DNA of 8,598 nt, taken from IMG/VR virus record IMGVR_UViG_2671180828_000009; one strand, written 5' to 3'. Shown piece by piece: positions 54 to 8,598 of the stretch. Position 1 is the stretch's first letter; every line of letters starts with the position of its first letter. The stretch comes from a virus (taxonomy: Duplodnaviria; Heunggongvirae; Uroviricota; Caudoviricetes). Both the position numbers and the translations under genes were made by a program. A model generated the notes under the pieces. That model did not search any database, was not told the origin of the DNA, and saw only the letters and a list, made by a program, of their open reading frames with translations.

Positions 54-1493
54 TTAATATCCAAATGCAATAAATACAGCGCCTGAAACTTTTGAATCAC
101 TGCTGGTTCCTGATGTCAAACAAGTTACAGCAGTAAACCCATCATTATATATACTTTCGCACGACGTAACGACTTGTGCATATGTCATTTTTGTGACAAA
201 CACACCCCATACTCCGTTAGGGAATGGCGTTGGATATGTAATAGGAAGCTGTTGTGGAATACCAATAGTTGTACTATTAGGAAGATTTCTTCGAAATATT
301 TGTATAATTAAACCATTCGGACCTTTAACCAACAAATTATCGCTTCCTTTTCCTGTTAGCTGAAAATAGCTCATGTCAGGGATTTCATAACTATTAGCAT
401 TACCAACATTTCTACCTGCCGCATTTCCCAAATGCCCTAAACCAAGATAAGTAAGAATTCCTTCTATATCCTTTCCACTCAAATTAGTCAGCGTATTATC
501 CAGCGGTTGTTTGCCTGCCAGCGCATTAAGCATTGTCGTGGCAAAGTTCGGGTCATTCCCCAGCGCCGCCGCCAGTTCGTTCAGTGTATCCAGTGCCGCA
601 GGTGCAGACCCCACCATTGCTGCAATTGCCGATTTCACAAAAGCTGTAGTGGCAATCTGTGTATTGTTGACCGACTGCGCCGCCGTGGGGGCTGTTGGCG
701 TTCCGGTGAGTGCCGGACTCGACAACGGTGCTTTTAGTGCCAGCACATTGTTAATGGTGGTACTGAAATTCGGATCATTGTTAATGGCTGCGGCTATTTC
801 TTTCAGCGTGTCCAGCGTGGCTGGCGCACCATTAATAAGGGCCGTCAGTGCCGCCTGAACAAACGCAGTGGTCGCAACCTGCGTGGTATTATTCCCCGCC
901 GCTGGCGTTGGCGCTTTGGGGGTTCCGGTAAACGTCGGACTTTCTTTGGGTGCATACTGTGAATGTGGGTCCTGTGCGGCAAGGTGTTTTGCCATCAGGT
1001 CATCCACATACACCTTCAGCTCCAGTACCTTGTCATCCACATACTTGCGGGTTGCCAGCACTACAGCAGGATCGATTTTCAGGGTGATATTTTCCGTGCT
1101 GCTGGTAATCAGCACCATGCGCACGGTCTGGGTGCGCCCGCTGCCTTCAGCCAGTTGCGGCTTATAGCTTTCCGGGCAGTTGCCCACGGCAATCAATGCC
1201 CCGGACTCATCAAACAGGCCCACTTCACGTATCCACCAACCTCCCTCGTTTTCAGGGATCACCTGTTCGGCAATAATCTGGCTGCTGTTCTGCGGGTCGA
1301 TATAGAGCATATTCAGCGCAGCCCGGCGTTTCTCATTTACCAGTGCCGTCTGCTTTGCGTCCGGCGTTGGCAATGTTCCGCCGCCATCGCCGACCGCCAT
1401 ATGGGTAATTTTTAAAGGCACACCGAGCGCGGCGGCGCTGGCAAGTTTCGCCGCGCCAATATCCGTCAGCAGGGTATAAAATTTTGTGCTCAT
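54..1493 (-). CDS. H: Tail fiber protein (P2 gpH-like), 479 aa, with a divergent C-terminal receptor-binding region
   Basis: N-terminus MSTKFYTLLTDIGAAKLASAAALGVPLKITHMAVGDGGG... resembles the recalled P2 gpH N-terminal domain. Internal motif ...NNTQIATTAFV...ALDTLNELAAALGNDPNFATTM.NALAGKQP is the conserved tail-fibre repeat seen in P2 H and lambda Stf. Position immediately after I in the late operon. Confidence 0.9.
   Translation of the reverse strand: MSTKFYTLLTDIGAAKLASAAALGVPLKITHMAVGDGGGTLPTPDAKQTALVNEKRRAALNMLYIDPQNSSQIIAEQVIPENEGGWWIREVGLFDESGALIAVGNCPESYKPQLAEGSGRTQTVRMVLITSSTENITLKIDPAVVLATRKYVDDKVLELKVYVDDLMAKHLAAQDPHSQYAPKESPTFTGTPKAPTPAAGNNTTQVATTAFVQAALTALINGAPATLDTLKEIAAAINNDPNFSTTINNVLALKAPLSSPALTGTPTAPTAAQSVNNTQIATTAFVKSAIAAMVGSAPAALDTLNELAAALGNDPNFATTMLNALAGKQPLDNTLTNLSGKDIEGILTYLGLGHLGNAAGRNVGNANSYEIPDMSYFQLTGKGSDNLLVKGPNGLIIQIFRRNLPNSTTIGIPQQLPITYPTPFPNGVWGVFVTKMTYAQVVTSCESIYNDGFTAVTCLTSGTSSDSKVSGAVFIAFGY
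501..941 (-). repeat. Two tandem copies of a ~73-codon tail-fibre repeat inside H (about nt 723..941 and 501..719)
   Basis: Residues 185-257 (SPTFTGTPKAPTPAAGNNTTQVATTAFVQAALTALINGAPATLDTLKEIAAAINNDPNFSTTINNVLALKAPL) and 259-331 (SPALTGTPTAPTAAQSVNNTQIATTAFVKSAIAAMVGSAPAALDTLNELAAALGNDPNFATTMLNALAGKQPL) align along their length with roughly 60% identity. Also visible as paired antisense ORF segments. Confidence 0.7.
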
Positions 1494-2095
1494 GGATTCA
1501 CTCTCATTGTGTCAATAACATGGACCGCCCCGCCTTCATGCGCGGTGCCGCCGGAAATAATTGTTTCGTTGATATACGGATAGATCGTGATTTCTTCACC
1601 AAGATAGCTGGCGGCTCCCACCCAATGCGGGCCGCTGGTCTGCAGATTGATGGACATGCCGATCATGTGACGGCTACATGGTTTGGCATCGCTTATCAGC
1701 CGCTCAAGCTCCAGATAGGTATCTTCAGTGATGCCCTGGTCCTGCACACCAATGTCCAGGCGAAACGTACCCGGTGTTTCTCCGGTCTGCCACCACTCAA
1801 TAATGCGGATCAGGAAGCCGAACGGCTCCACCACCCGCCGCACGGCACTGGTGGTTCCTTTATGCTGATGAATATAAAAAGCATCCTTCACCACCTGTCG
1901 TTTGACGCTTTCCGTCCAGCCCTCGTCCCAGCAATCCACAGAGAACGCCCAGGCGAGATAAGGCAGGAAACTGATCGGACAGGTCGTTGGATTCCACAAG
2001 TCACGCAGCGGCACCTGCAGATCAGAAATCCCGCTGCAGGTTTGCGCCAGTCGGCGCTCCAGTGGCGTTGAACCCGGTGGCAGCAGACTATTCAT
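1490..2095 (-). CDS. I: Baseplate assembly protein I (P2 gpI-like), 201 aa
   Basis: Motifs LPPGSTPLE, LWNPTTCP, LPYLAWAFSVDCWDEGW, GTFRLDIGV are characteristic of P2 gpI-family proteins. 4-nt ATGA overlap with the H start. Position between J and H. Confidence 0.85.
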   Translation of the reverse strand: MNSLLPPGSTPLERRLAQTCSGISDLQVPLRDLWNPTTCPISFLPYLAWAFSVDCWDEGWTESVKRQVVKDAFYIHQHKGTTSAVRRVVEPFGFLIRIIEWWQTGETPGTFRLDIGVQDQGITEDTYLELERLISDAKPCSRHMIGMSINLQTSGPHWVGAASYLGEEITIYPYINETIISGGTAHEGGAVHVIDTMRVNP

Positions 2096-2996
2096 CCGTT
2101 CCTCCGTTGGTTACGCTCCACTGCGTACATGATGCCGCCTGTGTTTTGTTCAGGACCACATCCGCCAGAGGAGAAGCCAGCTCCACACGCTGCACACCCT
2201 CAACATGCAGGGCGGCAAAGATGGCGCTACGGCGAATATCCCGACCAAGACGCGTCTGACTGGCGATGTACTTCTGCAGGCTGGCTTTTGCCGCTGCCAT
2301 TACCGGCTCTGCTTCCGGTCCCGGATAGAGAAAAATGGTGGCTTCCACGCGATACGGGATGATTTCTGCGCTGCGAACCGTCAGACGGTCAGCCACCGGG
2401 CGGACGTTCTCACTGTTCAGAGCTTTTTCCACCACGTCCAGCAGGTCTTTTTCTGCAGTTCCATCGCCTTCGCGGCTAAGGACAGTCAGCACCACCTCTG
2501 CAGGTGCCGGGCTGGTTGCACTGGCATCCGCCACCCGACCGTCGGCGCTTCGGGCATGAAATTCATAAGCTGCAGTTGGCCCCGCAACTGAAAGCCCTTC
2601 AAAGGCTGCAGGCACACGCAGGCGTAACGATTCATCGCTTTCCATCACAGCTGCAACGGGCGGCACAGCGTCATTATCAGCAGGCGTCACCGTCAGGCGT
2701 TTCACGTTGTAGTTGGCAGCGATTTGGTCCAGATCGCCGCCCATCGCATAAGCCACCATCACCGCCTGCGCGGCTTCGTTAATGCGCTGGCGCAGAAGCA
2801 ACTCACGGTAAGCGTTCTCCTGCAACAATTTGGTGACGGGTTCAGATTCCAGTTCCAGCGTGCGGATCACTGCTTCCTGCTCATCTTTCGGATGAAGCGC
2901 CACAAATTCGGCCTTGCGTTCGGCAAGCAGCGTCTCAAAGTCCGGCACATCCACAATCTGCGGCGCAGGCAACTGCGAAAGGTCAATCACTGCCAT
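2088..2996 (-). CDS. J: Baseplate assembly protein J (P2 gpJ-like), about 302 aa
   Basis: The ORF track opens at 3035, but the likely start is the ATG at 2996 (MAVIDLSQLPAPQIV...), giving the expected gpJ length. Position between W and I. Overlaps the W 3' end by 14 nt and the I start by 8 nt. Confidence 0.85.
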   Translation of the reverse strand: MAVIDLSQLPAPQIVDVPDFETLLAERKAEFVALHPKDEQEAVIRTLELESEPVTKLLQENAYRELLLRQRINEAAQAVMVAYAMGGDLDQIAANYNVKRLTVTPADNDAVPPVAAVMESDESLRLRVPAAFEGLSVAGPTAAYEFHARSADGRVADASATSPAPAEVVLTVLSREGDGTAEKDLLDVVEKALNSENVRPVADRLTVRSAEIIPYRVEATIFLYPGPEAEPVMAAAKASLQKYIASQTRLGRDIRRSAIFAALHVEGVQRVELASPLADVVLNKTQAASCTQWSVTNGGTDE

Positions 2997-3342
2997 TCTC
3001 TGCTCCTGTTGATACGGAAAGGGAAACAGGCACACCGCTATTACGCCGCCCGGTCAGCTCCACCACCATTGAACCGTCAAAATTACTGTTGATGGTGATG
3101 GAATCCAGCGTCAGCCGTGGCTCCCAGCGACTCAGCGCCACATACACTGCCGACATGACCTGCAGGCGTAACGCCGGATTTTGTGGCTGGTCTATCAGTG
3201 CCGACAGCAGGGAACCATATTCCCGGCGAGCAATGCGGCTACCCTGCGGCGTCAGCAAAATGTCCCGCACCGACTGGCGCAGATGGTCAATATCAGTAAT
3301 GGCTTTACCGCTGATATTGTTCATCCCGCTATAAAGCGTCAT
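2983..3342 (-). CDS. W: Baseplate wedge protein W (gp25-like), 119 aa
   Basis: Size and sequence (MTLYSGMN..., ...REYGSLL..IDQPQNPALRLQ...WEPR...) are consistent with P2 gpW. Start ATG overlaps the upstream stop as ATGA. Confidence 0.85.
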   Translation of the reverse strand: MTLYSGMNNISGKAITDIDHLRQSVRDILLTPQGSRIARREYGSLLSALIDQPQNPALRLQVMSAVYVALSRWEPRLTLDSITINSNFDGSMVVELTGRRNSGVPVSLSVSTGAENGSD

Positions 3343-3938
3343 ACCGGGCCTCCGGTTGTATCGCCGCCTTTCAGGACGCCAGTATGCTGATGCGCATCAA
3401 CCACGATCCCGTTAGAACTCATAGCTCCGCCGCCCTGGGTAAGGCACCAGGCCATCTCCCGCGCACGGCGGTTATCCAGCCCCTGATTAAAAACACCTTT
3501 CACATAAACCCAGCGCGGCAACTGTCGGCACGCATCCGCCCAGCGCCGCTGATTGAGCAATTTCACCAGCGTGGAGCTGCAGGCATTGCCTGTCCCCACG
3601 TTGAAGGCAAATGACACCACCGCGTCATACACTTTCTGCGGCGGCTGTTGCTTCACACACCTTTCCAGCGCCCGCTCCACACGCAGCACGTTGGAGATCA
3701 GCCCTTCCGCTGCCTGTCGTTCCGTAATGGTTTTGCCTGGAATGACACCAGATGTATTACCAATGCCGTCTGTCCAGACACCCGCGCTGCACTGATACGG
3801 CTGCAGACGACAGCCTTCGTAATCGGCAATCAGTTTCAGCCCCTCCACGGAGGTGTGAAGCTGCTGAAAACCCGGCAGCGTGGCAGCAATAGCCAGCACG
3901 GCTCCGACAAGGCAGCGTTTAACGATTGATGGATTCAT
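3339..3938 (-). CDS. SAR endolysin, T4-lysozyme (GH24) family, P1 Lyz-like, with a ~30 aa C-terminal extension
   Basis: Weakly hydrophobic Gly/Ala-rich N-terminus MNPSIVKRCLVGAVLAIAATLPG followed by ...YEGCRLQPYQCSAGVWTDGIGNT..., which closely matches the recalled P1 Lyz catalytic region (EGCRRDPYMCPAGVWTDGIGNT). Start chosen at the in-frame ATG 3938 because GGGAGGA sits immediately upstream; the ORF track opens at 3965. Confidence 0.8.
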   Translation of the reverse strand: MNPSIVKRCLVGAVLAIAATLPGFQQLHTSVEGLKLIADYEGCRLQPYQCSAGVWTDGIGNTSGVIPGKTITERQAAEGLISNVLRVERALERCVKQQPPQKVYDAVVSFAFNVGTGNACSSTLVKLLNQRRWADACRQLPRWVYVKGVFNQGLDNRRAREMAWCLTQGGGAMSSNGIVVDAHQHTGVLKGGDTTGGPV

Positions 3939-4134
3939 AGTCCTCCCGCGAGATCTGCCCGTCACGCAGAAGCTGGTAGGCTTTGTGTTTGTAGTACCAG
4001 TTGATAGCCAGCATCAGCACACCAATCATCAGGCCGCCCAGCGTTGAGGCATCCTTGATGGACAAATCGCCCAGCCAGGCCAGCACGACGGCGATGCAAT
4101 ACGTGATAAAGGCGCTGATTCGCTCAAGCGTCAT
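3919..4134 (-). CDS. Class II holin (possible pinholin), 71 aa
   Basis: Two predicted transmembrane helices (ISAFITYCIAVVLAWLG and LGGLMIGVLMLAINWYY) followed by a charged C-terminal tail. Sits immediately upstream of, and overlapping, the SAR endolysin gene. Confidence 0.6.
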   Translation of the reverse strand: MTLERISAFITYCIAVVLAWLGDLSIKDASTLGGLMIGVLMLAINWYYKHKAYQLLRDGQISREDYESINR

Positions 4135-4137
4135 AAT

Positions 4138-4341
4138 TCAGTCCCATAGCTGGACGGTCTGCACGGTGGTGGTTGTCGGTATGTCCGGCAGCTCCACCTG
4201 CAACCCGTGAGGTAAAAAGGGGCCGTATTCGGCAAGCCCCGGATTTGCCTTCAGTACCTGCTCCGTGACACCCTGCGTGCGCCCGTAATGACGCCAGCAA
4301 AGCGCGTCCACCGTGTCATACTGATGCGCACGCACTTTCAT
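4138..4341 (-). CDS. X: Tail protein X (P2 gpX-like), 67 aa
   Basis: MKVRAHQYDTVDALCWRHYGRTQGVTEQVLKANPGLAEYGPFLPHGLQVELPD closely resembles recalled P2 gpX. Exact expected size and position after L. Confidence 0.85.
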   Translation of the reverse strand: MKVRAHQYDTVDALCWRHYGRTQGVTEQVLKANPGLAEYGPFLPHGLQVELPDIPTTTTVQTVQLWD

Positions 4342-4805
4342 CAGATAAGCTCCACTGTGCAGTGCGGCGCATCCTGTACCCGGCTGATGGCCCAGCGGGC
4401 GTCACGCCACAAATCACCGCTGGCTTCTGCCAGTTCCTCGCCTCGCTTCACACCCGATGCCGTGGCGTCATAGTCCTGGTATCGTTCGTTGAGCATGGCG
4501 CGTGCCCAACAATAAACCGCGTTGAAATAGTGCTGAATGCGCTCACTTTTGCCGTCCAGCTGTTCCGCCGGGACTTCTGCCAGCGACACATACCCCAGCA
4601 TCTGCTGACGTCTGCGAAACTCATACAGCTCTGCGTTGACCTCCGAAATTGCCGACAGAGCAACCTGCTTTAAACGCGGCTGCGTCACCGTGCCGTCAGT
4701 GCGCATGACACTGCGAAACTCCGACAGGTCCACATCAGGCCAGAACGGCGTATTTCTGATGATTTCCGCCTGTTCCGGTGCCTGTTCTGGCGCAACAAAC
4801 TTCAT
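4341..4805 (-). CDS. L: Head completion/stabilisation protein L (P2 gpL-like), about 154 aa
   Basis: Start assigned to ATG 4805 (MKFVAPEQ...) preceded by AGGAGA; the ORF track opens further upstream at 4868 inside a GC-rich hairpin. Position immediately before X. Confidence 0.8.
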   Translation of the reverse strand: MKFVAPEQAPEQAEIIRNTPFWPDVDLSEFRSVMRTDGTVTQPRLKQVALSAISEVNAELYEFRRRQQMLGYVSLAEVPAEQLDGKSERIQHYFNAVYCWARAMLNERYQDYDATASGVKRGEELAEASGDLWRDARWAISRVQDAPHCTVELI

Positions 4806-4818
4806 GCTGCTTTCTCCT

Positions 4819-4880
4819 GAAATAAAGGGCGGTGGACGGGGTTTTGATGTGGCAGTGCCTTTCGCCACCCCGTGCCGCCC
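4819..4880 (-). terminator. Candidate intrinsic terminator or structured element between the N remnant and L
   Basis: GC-rich imperfect stem (gggcgg..acgggg at 4828-4842 pairing with ccccgt.ccgccc at 4868-4880, ~25-nt loop) followed on the transcribed strand by CTTTATTTC just upstream of the L ribosome-binding site. Confidence 0.3.
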
Positions 4881-4900
4881 GTGCGCGGGGGCACGTTCTG

Positions 4901-5614
4901 TCAGCGGCTGTCATTGCGCAGTCTGCGCTCCAGCTGCTGTTTGTCTTTTTTCACGCCACAGCGGGGATCGAGCTGTAACGCATGGTTGAGATGATTAAGG
5001 GCAGACGCCGGATTCCCGACTTTCACTGCGCCCGGTGTGGTTTCACCGCCCGTGGTGGTGCTGCCCATGACGTGATCCGGTGCATCCTCACGGATTTTCT
5101 GCAGCCAGCCTTTGTTCACATCCTGCAGCAGCGGGTTTTCGCTACGGTTGGAGGTTTTCGCACGCTTCACGCCGTTAAAGCCGATCATGATGCGGTCCAG
5201 TGCCTGACGTTTCACGATGGCGTTACGGATACGCACCTGGAAATCCTGAAACTTCGCCCACAGGTCCAGCTTCGCGTAGGTCAGCACCGTGTCAAAGTTG
5301 GTCTGCTCGCATTTGTATTCCACATCGACCATCAGCGTCGGATCGACAGGCTCACGCTCTTTCGCGGTGGTGTCAGTGGTTCCGGCAATGGTGCTGCCAA
5401 CACCCAGCCCCAGCAACTGACCAGACTGCTCAGTCACTGGCGTGACGTTAATCAGCGTCAGGAATGCGGCGGACTGCTGGATCTGGTCTTCCAGCGTCTG
5501 CTGTACAGACGGCTCCACGGTGAACTTGCTGGACAGTTCTTCAACTGCCACACCGTTCAGACGCGCCAGCTGCTGCAGGTAAGCGTTAAAAGCAAAGCGG
5601 GTATTCTTCTTCAT
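4901..5614 (-). pseudogene. N: Major capsid protein N, 3'-truncated (237 codons versus about 350 expected)
   Basis: N-terminal ~205 aa (MKKNTRFAFNAYL...KFTVEPSV...LDLWAKFQDFQVRIRNAIVKRQALDRIMIGFNGVKRA...) look like a P2 N-family capsid protein. It follows O as expected, but the ORF is about 120 codons short, has a basic non-capsid-like tail (KKDKQQLERRLRNDSR), and no M gene lies between it and L. Confidence 0.7.
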
Positions 5615-5630
5615 CAGGTTTTGTGCTCCA

Positions 5631-6464
5631 TCAGCAATTGGTCAGAGTGTCAGCGGGGGCGTTACCGCCTGTTGCACGCTGGCGGTAGTCCTGGCGGCTG
5701 TCTTCATGGCTCAGCTTGTCCACCAGTTCGTTAAAGGCGGTCAGCTGTGCCTGCAGGGCTGTCTCCAGCTCAGACAGGCGTTCTTCCTGTTCAGACAGGG
5801 ATTTTTCGGTGCGCGCACTCAGGTTTTGCTGCTCAGTGGCGACCAGCTCCACGGCCTTATGCACATCAGAGAACCGGGCATCGTCGGACTGCTCTTTTTT
5901 GGTAAACAGCGCCGTGACACGGGCAAACAGGGACGGCTTGTCCTCCTGGATTTCTTCCAGTTCGATCACTGTTTCCTCTGCGGCGGTAAAGAGATTGGCG
6001 GGATTCTGCTTGCGGTTTGCCAGTGGGTTATGGGCTGCACTGGCGCTGAATGTCAGCATTTCAGTGCCCAGACTGGCAGGGTCATCAGTGGCAGCCAGGC
6101 CGACCAGGTAGGCTTTGCCCGTATCAGCGAACTTCGGGCTGACTTCCATAGAGGTGAATAATTTCTGGCCTTTTTTCACCAGTTCCACCAGGGACTCCGT
6201 TGGCTCAACGTCGGCATACAGCGCCATCTTGCCTGCCAGCGGACCTTCCGTGATTTCTTCAGCAAACAGCGCCGTCACCTTGCCGTAGCGGTTAAAGGTG
6301 CTGTCCGGCAGATAAGACTTGATGTGCTCAAGGTTAATCAGCGCGGTATACACCGCCGGGTTGTAGCTGGCTGCCATCTGTTCCAGCCATTCTCGCTGGA
6401 TTTCGCGTCCGTCGGTGGTGGCACCTTCCACCCCGATGCGAAAACGCTTTGCTTTCACTGTCAT
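5631..6464 (-). CDS. O: Capsid scaffolding protein O (P2 gpO-like), 277 aa
   Basis: ...FRIGVEG..DGR...INLEH...YG.V..L.AE...; ...AYLVGLAATDDPASLGTE... and C-terminal ...ATGG....D.LTNC match recalled gpO. GGAG 8 nt upstream of the ATG. Divergent from P. Confidence 0.85.
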   Translation of the reverse strand: MTVKAKRFRIGVEGATTDGREIQREWLEQMAASYNPAVYTALINLEHIKSYLPDSTFNRYGKVTALFAEEITEGPLAGKMALYADVEPTESLVELVKKGQKLFTSMEVSPKFADTGKAYLVGLAATDDPASLGTEMLTFSASAAHNPLANRKQNPANLFTAAEETVIELEEIQEDKPSLFARVTALFTKKEQSDDARFSDVHKAVELVATEQQNLSARTEKSLSEQEERLSELETALQAQLTAFNELVDKLSHEDSRQDYRQRATGGNAPADTLTNC

Positions 6465-6542
6465 GAGCCGTGCTCCGTTAGAAAAAACTTACTGGAGCCT
6501 TATGGTTGCGGTGATGGGGGCAGTGAAACAATGCGCGGTATT

Positions 6543-6560
6543 TGTACCGACAACCACACA
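6543..6560. promoter_or_regulatory. TGT-N12-ACA dyad, candidate Ogr/Delta-type late-promoter activator site (most plausibly for the O operon)
   Basis: TGTaccgacaaccacACA at 6543..6560 in the 142-bp O/P divergent intergenic region. P2-family late promoters carry this dyad centred near -55. The spacing puts a minus-strand transcription start about 30 nt upstream of the O ATG. Confidence 0.4.
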
Positions 6561-6606
6561 AACCGCAGGCGGGGAAAGCCTTCATTCAAGGCTGTAGGTT
6601 TGTGCC

Positions 6607-7578
6607 ATGAACACCACACTGACACCCGCAGATCTCGATCCCCGTCGGCAGGCCATGCTGCTGTACTTTCAGGGATACCGCGTAGCCCGCATTGCTGAAA
6701 TGCTGGGCGAGAAAGTTGCAACCGTTCACAGCTGGAAAAAACGCGACAAGTGGGGTGACTATGGGCCGCTGGATCAGATGCAGCTCACCACCGCCGCACG
6801 CTACTGCCAGCTCATCATGAAGGAGCACAAAGAAGGGAAAGATTTCAAAGAGATTGACCTGCTGGCGCGCCAGTCTGAGCGCCACGCGCGGATCGGCAAG
6901 TTTAACAATGGCGGCAACGAATCCGACTTAAACCCTAACGTCGCCAACCGCAACAAAGGCCCACGCCGTCAGCCGGAAAAGAATGTTTTCACCGATGAGC
7001 AGATTGAGAAGCTGGAAGAAATCTTCCATTCCTCCATGTTCAACTACCAGCGCCACTGGTGGGAAGCCGGAAAAACCAACCGCATCCGCAACCTGCTGAA
7101 GTCACGCCAGATCGGCGCGACCTTTTACTTTGCCCGTGAAGCCCTGATTGACGCCCTGCTGACCGGACGTAACCAGATTTTCCTTTCCGCCAGCAAGGCA
7201 CAGGCCCACGTCTTTAAGCAGTACATCATCGACTTCGCCAAAGAAGTGGAGGTGGAGTTGAAAGGCGATCCGATGGTGCTTCCTAACGGGGCCACGCTTT
7301 ACTTCCTCGGCACCAATGCCCGCACTGCCCAGAGTTATCACGGCAACCTGTATCTGGATGAATATTTCTGGATACCGAAATTCCAGGAGCTGCGCAAAGT
7401 GGCTTCCGGTATGGCTATTCACAAGAAATGGCGACAAACCTATTTTTCCACGCCATCCAGCCTGACACACAGTGCTTATCCGTTCTGGTCCGGTGCGCTA
7501 TTCAACCGTGGGCGCAACAAAGCCGATACCGCACCTGCAGCAACACGCCCGATCTCTGCGGTTGCACTCATGACGTAA
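6607..7578 (+). pseudogene. P: Terminase large subunit P, truncated (323 codons versus about 590 expected)
   Basis: N-terminal region (...[17 protein letters not shown]...[10 protein letters not shown]..., ...[17 protein letters not shown]...) is consistent with the P2 gpP N-terminal and ATPase region. The frame ends in a non-terminase-like tail overlapping the convergent cII-like gene. No portal gene Q follows. Confidence 0.75.
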
Positions 7579-7868
7579 TGTGGCAGTTTCTCTTTTGCCA
7601 CCTCATTAATTGGTACGCATGGCAGGCAGTGAATCTGTGCCAGAAAACCATCTACCAACGTTGAATCTTCAGTCAGATCGGTAAGCAGCCAGATTTCTGG
7701 TGCGGTTAATAAATGAGGTTGAGCTGGGTTCAGCTTGTTCCGCAGAATCTGCACATTCATGCCCGCACGTTCTGCCAGTTGCACCAGATTGTGGCGCAGT
7801 GCGAATGCACGACAGGCTTCATCAAAATGTGGATGTTTGGAAACTTGGTAATCAAACATGGTTTTCAA
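7476..7868 (-). CDS. cII: Phage CII-like regulatory protein (186 CII / CP76 family), probably 3'-truncated
   Basis: [45 protein letters not shown]...[25 protein letters not shown] matches the recalled CP76/CII family N-terminal region. The real start may be M4 at 7859. 130 aa versus about 165-170 for family members. Confidence 0.65.
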
Positions 7869-7873
7869 CTCCG

Positions 7874-7915
7874 AACTTATCGCAAAATCGAACTCAGCGT
7901 CTTATTGCGAAAATA
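7874..7915. promoter_or_regulatory. Paired repeats in the apl-cII intergenic region
   Basis: CTTATCGCAAAAT (7875-7887) and CTTATTGCGAAAAT (7901-7914) form a direct repeat about 26 bp apart; they contain the inverted hexamers TCGCAA / TTGCGA. Confidence 0.25.
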
Positions 7916-7923
7916 GACGTCTA

Positions 7924-8127
7924 TTAAGCAGACAAAGCATCAACAGTCAGAGCAGCCAGGTTAATCATTACCTTTTCACGTTTTTTGTCTTTACGAAGAC
8001 GATGACGAGGTAGTCGGCCATCAGCCAACATGTCGTTAATCGTATCAATAGAAAGGCCAGTCAGTTCGCTATAACGTTCGATTGTGACATGTGGTGTATT
8101 CAGAGTAATTGAAATGTTAGGTGTCAT
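7924..8127 (-). CDS. Small helix-turn-helix DNA-binding protein, Apl/Cox-like excisionase-regulator, 67 aa
   Basis: ...[27 protein letters not shown]... is an excisionase-type HTH. First gene of the leftward operon, divergent from cI and upstream of cII, as apl is in 186. Confidence 0.5.
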
Positions 8128-8272
8128 AAGGCAACATTCCTTCTAGATATGGCTTGTGGCGAGCCGTTGTTTGTCGTGATTAGTAGTGAAGGCTCCAAAA
8201 GAACACTTCTGGTTCAACTTTAAGATCGCTTTTGGAATCTGTCAACGAATTTTGGATTTCTTTGGAGGACTT
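8128..8272. promoter_or_regulatory. Immunity switch region between the divergent apl-like and cI genes
   Basis: 145-bp intergenic region. Perfect 8-bp inverted repeat TCCAAAAG (8194-8201) / CTTTTGGA (8229-8236) with further TTTGGA copies at 8251 and 8261. GGAGG at 8264-8268 ahead of the cI GTG. No promoter hexamers could be placed confidently. Confidence 0.4.
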
Positions 8273-8598
8273 GTGGATTTCAATAGCGGCGGTAAGAAAG
8301 CCATAGAACGTTTAGTTGAAGCATATGGGTTCGGTACCCGTCAGGCTCTCTGTGATCATTTAGGTGTTTCTAAGAGCACCATGGCAACGCGCTATATGCG
8401 TGATATTTTTCCAGCAGATTGGGTAATCCAGTGCGCCCTTGAAACGGGCACCTCGCTTAATTGGCTAACAACAGGGCATGGTTCAAAGCAAGCATCAGCA
8501 AATACAAATACTATAGAAGTAGAAAAATATTTATTGTCTGATGGAGCATTGCAGAAAGACGGTTTTTATATTTTTGATAAGGGATTTCTACCCTCTAC
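8273..8598 (+). CDS. cI: CI-family repressor (186 CI-like N-terminal HTH domain), 5' part only
   Basis: Open frame from GTG 8273 to the window edge: VDFNSGGKKAIERLVEAYGFGTRQALCDHLGVSKSTMATRYMRDIFPADWVIQCALETGTSLNWLTTGHG..., matching the 186 CI-type HTH pattern. Not in the ORF track because it has a non-ATG start and no stop within the window. Confidence 0.7.
   Translation, partial: MDFNSGGKKAIERLVEAYGFGTRQALCDHLGVSKSTMATRYMRDIFPADWVIQCALETGTSLNWLTTGHGSKQASANTNTIEVEKYLLSDGALQKDGFYIFDKGFLPS

Follow-up and report, generated by a model that had tools for sequence, protein, structure and literature searches.

A probable Ogr-type activator site between O and P of a decayed Fels-2-like prophage, and a likely cognate activator gene beyond the contig end

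Activation in trans by Ogr or Delta is an established behaviour of P2-type late promoters. In phage P2 (NC_001895), a single activator site (3057-3087), a partial dyad lying between the divergent genes P and O, serves both pO and pP, whose transcription starts (3016 and 3127) are each 55.5 nt from its centre. Together with pV and pF, these promoters form a late class that depends on Ogr, with a TGT-N12-ACA consensus and a poor -35 region; the consensus and the Ogr dependence are summarized in a passage of PMC3931495 that cites Christie and Calendar 1985 and Julien and Calendar 1995. The class is activated by a 72-aa CX2CX22CX4C zinc-finger protein, whose gene adjoins att at the late region's far end. 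Phage 186 (NC_001317) has the same bidirectional layout, with one B-protein site (3798-3817) for pV and p12. In the P4 system (delta, and also Psid/PLL), promoters of this class respond to Ogr-family proteins provided in trans, with no need for helper replication, and a passage of PMC12239096, citing Halling and Calendar 1990, describes transactivation of P2 prophage late genes by P4 delta without replication.

The DNA analysed here (the window, 8,598 nt at its full length) is a piece of a decayed Fels-2/P2-like (Peduoviridae) prophage and makes up the entire draft contig CDQN01000172.1 of assembly GCA_000938575.1. Across positions 6300-6800, the window is 93% identical to Fels-2 and 98.6-99.8% identical to several Klebsiella and E. 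coli P2-like phages (93-99.8% for the group formed by Fels-2, KP12, vB_EcoM-813R9, and ST437-OXA245phi4.2), and judged by this identity the lineage is Fels-2-like. Fels-2 and KP12 are gene-complete or nearly so, whereas the remnant is without M, lysABC, R, S, V, pV, Q, and the replication genes and has truncated copies of N, P, and cII (Table 1). Its cI, apl-like, and cII immunity genes are a further likeness to 186.

Comparison with the relative vB_EcoM-813R9 located three deletion junctions, at approximately 3445, 5013, and 7528. The first joins V to the last codons of K, with loss of lysA/B/C, R, S, two cargo genes, most of V, and pV; the second removed the C-terminus of N through most of M; and the third took out the C-terminus of P, Q, the replication genes, and the C-terminus of cII, so that P' is joined to cII'. 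The N-terminus of P' is collinear with P of P2 and 186, and its homology to 813R9 stops at 7528. No convincing terminator was found on the minus strand of the window. Because pV is deleted and such a terminator is missing, pO would be the sole remaining late promoter ahead of O, N', L, X, the holin gene, the endolysin fusion, W, J, I, and H. Within the pO unit, the K'-'V deletion also places W-J-I-H immediately after the lysis genes.

Table 1. Coordinates of features in the 8,598-nt window.
Feature	Coordinates	Strand	Basis or remark
Tail fibre H, 479 aa	54-1493	-	gene calls, Pfam
gpI	1490-2095	-	gene calls, Pfam
gpJ	2088-2996	-	gene calls, Pfam
gpW	2983-3342	-	gene calls, Pfam
Endolysin'-'V in-frame fusion	3339-3938	-	Phage_lysozyme residues 48-170 of 208-aa ORF, plus C-terminal GpV Apex motif
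Holin	3919-4134	-	gene calls, Pfam
gpX	4138-4341	-	gene calls, Pfam
gpL	4341-4805	-	gene calls, Pfam
N', truncated major capsid protein	4901-5614	-	Pfam profile positions 1-189 of 327
O, capsid scaffolding protein, 277 aa, intact; first gene of pO unit	5631-6464	-	PF05929 E=5e-113, full length
O-P intergenic region with two predicted back-to-back late promoters	6465-6606	both	flanking ORFs; conserved blocks either side of dyad
Predicted pO core	6492-6507	-	P2 geometry
Putative Ogr/B-type activator site common to pO and pP	6543-6560	both	dyad sequence, alignment, conservation
Predicted pP core	6595-6607	+	relatives' spacing and P2 V
Second perfect TGT-N12-ACA, TGTGCCATGAACACCACA	6601-6618		overlaps P start codon
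P', terminase ATPase subunit, truncated at about residue 307	6607-7578	+	PF06056/PF03237; Terminase_5 and Terminase_6N positions 1-166 of 215
Immunity region	7476-8598		PF06892 positions 1-111 of 146; PF07022
cII', truncated	7476-7859	-	immunity region
apl/cox-like gene	7924-8127	-	immunity region
pR-like promoter	8245-8217	-	TTGACA-17-TAAAGT
cI, 5' part, cut by contig end	8273-8598	+	immunity region

A sequence-only reading of this DNA had placed a TGT-N12-ACA dyad where an Ogr-dependent promoter for the O operon would be expected, and a scan of the window located a perfect dyad there, TGTACCGACAACCACACA on the plus strand and TGTGTGGTTGTCGGTACA on the minus strand. It lies inside the 142-bp gap that separates the divergent O and truncated P genes, bounded by the O start codon at 6464 (minus strand) and the P start codon at 6607 (plus strand), and it aligns with the activator or B-protein sites annotated in the P2 (pO/pP) and 186 (pV/p12) records. 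Written in the P2 orientation, the window reads TGT GTGGTTGTCGGT ACA, compared to TGT GTGGGCGGTTGT CCA in 186 and TGT GTCAGTGATAAG CCA in P2, and the left half TGTGTGG is common to the window and 186. The dyad centre is 87.5 nt from the O ATG, the same distance as to the scaffold-gene ATG in 186 and as in PSP3, while the corresponding distance in P2 is 95.5 nt; on the other side it is 55.5 nt from the P ATG, versus 78.5 nt in P2, 186, and PSP3. The gap itself measures 173 bp in P2, and the P proteins of P2 and the remnant are 53% identical over their first 100 residues. Gap length and both dyad spacings (55.5 and 87.5 nt) are the same in Fels-2 (Salmonella LT2, Felsduovirus; the STM2721/STM2722 gap), and among the relatives checked the gap is likewise 142 bp in KP12 and 813R9. 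The O-side placement in the earlier reading was thus right, but the site would not belong to pO alone: on the P2 and 186 layout it is bidirectional and serves pP as well.

The motif is not rare enough to identify the site by itself. The window holds 2 perfect TGT-N12-ACA matches against 2.24 expected from shuffled sequences, which is chance level, and 35 matches with one mismatch against 42 expected; by our own arithmetic, approximately 0.03 perfect matches would be expected within the 142-bp gap. Support for the dyad therefore comes from its position and conservation and not from the motif count. The earlier reading would have been undermined had the dyad been missing from homologous O-P gaps; instead, both half-sites, TGT and ACA, are invariant in 80 of 80 close relatives from IMG/VR, with spacer substitutions in 6 contigs. 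These relatives comprise 22 distinct intergenic variants, the commonest of which is that of the window. A perfect dyad also occupies the same place in Fels-2, Yersinia MLG42, ST15-OXA48phi14.1 (Gegavirus), and ST437-OXA245phi4.1 (Gegevirus), whose spacers and flanks differ (80-94% identity). P2, 186, and PSP3 carry TGT-N12-CCA at this position, one mismatch away, and ENT90 has no match there within one mismatch; TGT-N12-ACA is therefore best regarded as a loose consensus.

The same motif recurs at other late promoters of this lineage. Perfect dyads lie at matching offsets upstream of V and FI in Fels-2 and KP12, and upstream of V only in 813R9, from which FI is deleted. Of the 7 perfect matches in the 33.7 kb of Fels-2, 3 fall within the approximately 312 nt upstream of the late operons, for which we estimate a binomial probability of about 3e-5. 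The remnant itself has a perfect dyad upstream of FI (pF), at positions 17176-17193 of the longer contig L003 described below. In every feature that can be read from sequence, the window dyad is that of a P2-family Ogr-dependent late promoter. A sigma-70 consensus scan found no canonical sigma-70 promoter in 6465-6606, as expected for activator-dependent promoters with a weak core and no consensus -35.

When the P2 geometry is applied to the O side, pO is predicted to start at approximately 6492-6496, 55-59 nt from the dyad centre, and two overlapping -10-like candidates are available, AACCAT (6507-6502) and CATAAG (6504-6499). A GGAG ribosome-binding site lies 8 nt ahead of the O ATG. The block GCAA(A/C)CATAAGGC at pO is conserved across genera, and a similar GAACATAGG is found at the same offset in the remnant's pF.

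On the P side, the -10-like sequence TAGGTT (6595-6600) ends 6 nt ahead of the P ATG; it is TAGGTT in KP12 also and TATGTT in Fels-2, MLG42, and two other Klebsiella genera. Every Fels-2-like relative (Fels-2, L097 19683-19749; KP12, L100 14817) has exactly 55.5 nt between the dyad centre and the A of the P ATG, and the dyad-to-ATG spacing for V is likewise 55.5 nt in Fels-2, 813R9, and KP12. The P2 record provides a precedent for such spacing at V, where transcription starts at the first base of the coding sequence and the activator site is centred 55.5 nt upstream. No Shine-Dalgarno sequence was found ahead of Fels-2 P, whereas P2, 186, and PSP3 have GAGG; in these three phages the P-side spacing is 23 nt longer, and 23 nt is the length of the P2 P leader. 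Taken together, these comparisons suggest that pP starts at the A of the P ATG (6607) and yields a leaderless mRNA for the terminase large subunit (P), as for P2 V. The shorter spacing between dyad and P ATG would mean either a leaderless P or a pP that works differently here.

Three other readings of the gap were considered and set aside. The second perfect match, at 6601-6618, is kept in 79 of 80 close relatives, but Fels-2 has TGG and hence no dyad there; situated at about +3 of the predicted pP start, it is in the wrong place for an activator site. It is probably fortuitous, and we rejected it as a separate pP site for its overlap with the ATG and its absence from Fels-2. A weak 5-bp hairpin (6549-6536, minus strand) overlaps the ACA half of the 6543-6560 dyad; it was rejected as a functional element, since Fels-2 has CCGTACAAATACAG and the hairpin is not kept. 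Terminator-like matches in the window number 14 versus 8.8 (sd 3.0) in shuffled sequences, not above expectation. Finally, AAGCCT (the reverse complement of 6576-6581) was rejected as a P2-like -10 for pP because the dyad would then fall at approximately -35, unlike mapped P2 late promoters.

The interest of the earlier reading lay in its supposition that the remnant lacks an ogr/B-type activator of its own, and it had proposed searching the flanking genome for one. The window itself contains no Ogr homologue (tblastn best E=0.26). However, all 8,598 nt of the window recur at 100% identity within L003, a 56.9-kb contig obtained from another sample, which extends beyond them on both sides, and the same search against this contig returned 2e-47. 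Here the remnant sits between the host genes rcdA and ybjL, in the order int, cI, apl-like gene, cII', P', dyad, O, N', L, X, holin gene, K'-'V, W, J, I, H, and G, followed by an acyltransferase gene, a sheath gene, a tube-D fusion, and then an intact gene for a 72-aa Ogr_Delta protein (L003 19810-20028; PF04606 E=5e-22), approximately 4.2 kb past the left end of the window. All four cysteines of the CX2CX22CX4C motif are kept in the predicted protein, which is 51% identical to P2 Ogr and 68% identical to Fels-2 Ogr, and it is identical to Ogr of the gene-complete Klebsiella phage KP12, whose O-P dyad is in turn identical to that of the window. The complete genome of E. coli LR-64-2 holds a further-deleted sister remnant, also between rcdA and ybjL, which shares the P'-cII' junction region and carries the same Ogr protein, its gene adjoining ybjL. 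The apparent lack of a late activator is thus an artefact of the contig end, as read from identical DNA of another sample and from the sister remnant. With ogr in the flanking sequence of this identical DNA, the supposition of an orphan site falls away; since the activator is encoded nearby in the same element there, the dyad is very probably not an orphan.

These and other relatives of the remnant bear on its history. The P'-cII' join of the window, at approximately 7523-7528, and the LR-64-2 remnant, which further lacks 7412-7522 and 2321-6123, represent nested decay in one lineage; the extra deletion in LR-64-2 created a J'-O' fusion (L002 12027-12037), and the remnant there is otherwise 99.9-100% identical to the window. 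Few contigs (11) carry an exact copy of the N' fusion, the protein by which the source contig of the window was recognized; a 38-mer across the K'/W junction had no exact match among the genome contigs scanned. The whole window was not found in any complete E. coli RefSeq genome, the best match having 97.3% identity in 4 pieces. Assembly GCA_000938575.1 holds two contigs of the remnant at 100% identity, that of 8,598 nt and one of 5,616 nt (CDQN01000811.1), which points to redundancy or a mixture in the assembly. On one side the window breaks off 53 nt beyond the tail-fibre stop codon and on the other within cI, and repeat-induced contig breaks are likely. A CFT073-type relative is widespread, with 783 E. 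coli genomes covering at least 80% of the window. At this locus (813R9, L001 5185-6261 and flanks), the tail-fibre gene is truncated against the host gene ybjT and the end of the prophage from G and FI to ogr is missing; the CFT073-type records each show a second matching place, consistent with a rearrangement that split the prophage. The CFT073-type lineage may be one where the O-P dyad and ogr are truly apart.

The sequences upstream of the remnant's ogr offer some indication of how it might be controlled. A sigma-70-like promoter, TTTGCA-16-TATCAT, lies ahead of the gene (L003 19745-19810), and an inverted repeat, ATAATG-N6-CATTAT, spans its -10 element, with nearly the same sequence upstream of Fels-2 ogr. 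By analogy with 186, whose record describes pB as repressed by CI at two sites, this repeat may be a repressor operator, and cI is among the genes retained by the remnant. We found no convincing operator-like motif common to window positions 8128-8272 (pR/pL) and the ogr upstream region, nor did the remnant's pR/pL and ogr-upstream regions resemble the CI sites of 186 pB and pR. Without such operator similarity, CI control of the remnant's ogr is only an analogy with 186. Separately, a strong host palindrome, TGTGTACA-N2-TGTACACA, upstream of the TetR-family gene rcdA (L003 4645-4662; L001 31264-31281) also matches TGT-N12-ACA; it is presumably rcdA's own operator and unrelated to the phage dyad.

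We consider it very probable that the dyad is the cognate site of a Fels-2-like C4 zinc-finger activator of the Ogr/B/Pag type, that the gene for this activator is intact just outside the contig, and that the site is consequently not an orphan. In the mechanism that we propose, a single site between the divergent O and P genes would have its centre some 55 bp ahead of either start point. An Ogr-type activator would bind the dyad and recruit RNA polymerase to two weak promoters without a usable -35, pO directing transcription leftward and pP rightward. Both the binding and the start sites we infer from the sequence, position, and conservation of the dyad and from the presence of ogr in identical DNA. 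Cognate site and cognate activator would both have persisted unchanged in a decayed prophage that also appears to have kept cI, int, and a second dyad-bearing promoter, pF, and the internal deletion that took pV would leave pO heading the genes from O through H.

The strongest competing explanation is that the remnant is inert: site and ogr would be intact only through the recency of the decay, the site would never have fired, and its retention would reflect lack of time and not function. We regard this as a real possibility, though the less probable one. The causes proposed for such silence are an ogr that is kept off, the deletion of the replication genes and the SOS antirepressor, and the presence of cI, together with the CI repression of pB in 186. 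At least three large deletions (N-M, K to V, and P to cII) and the tube-D fusion leave no particle possible, the rarity of exact N' fusion copies is in keeping with this view, and a gap that is simply the commonest variant among relatives speaks neither for erosion nor for special constraint. However, O, L, X, the holin gene, W, J, I, H, G, the sheath gene, and ogr are still open reading frames, the sigma-70-like promoter still stands ahead of ogr, and the site could respond to other Ogr-family proteins present in the cell. Moreover, inertness concerns the use of the site and not its identity.

That the activator has been lost, leaving the dyad usable only through Ogr or Delta supplied by a superinfecting P2-like phage or a P4-like satellite, is very unlikely. 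The failed search for an Ogr homologue in the window and the delta transactivation described in PMC12239096 are in its favour, but the window is a complete short contig, the identical longer DNA reaches an intact Ogr_Delta gene 4.2 kb away, and the sister remnant in the complete LR-64-2 genome keeps ogr too. Activation of the cognate site by other P2-like phages or by P4 delta is plausible but neither needed nor new; here, unlike in the P4 case, the remnant encodes an activator itself, and there is no sign of a satellite or of a second phage. Least credible of all is a chance match, a small hairpin or terminator, or a site for a different protein, as the chance-level motif count, the fortuitous-looking match at 6601-6618, and the weak hairpin over the ACA half would have it, for the dyad keeps its place relative to the two start codons from genus to genus, its triplets do not vary whereas spacer and flanks do, the motif recurs at V and FI, the hairpin is not kept in Fels-2, and terminator-like matches do not exceed those of shuffled sequences.

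The site is already known, being the usual late-gene switch of P2-family phages handed down without change, and beyond correct annotation its importance is small. It is very improbable that the remnant is a compact, self-contained switchable module in which one bidirectional Ogr site heads a single transcription unit, produced by the K'-'V deletion that took pV, with holin, endolysin, baseplate wedge, and tail-fibre genes. If it were, the module would be switched by its own cI and ogr or by incoming Ogr or Delta, and co-resident P2-like phages or P4-like satellites could obtain lysis functions or alternative tail fibres from it. The absence of a partner gene from a short draft contig says nothing about the element, as illustrated by a window that stops 4.2 kb short of ogr. 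For the Fels-2-like phages, the late promoters, all with perfect TGT-N12-ACA dyads, should be easy to annotate, and the 55.5-bp spacing to the start codons of both P and V predicts leaderless mRNAs for the two genes, which would extend the single precedent of P2 V.
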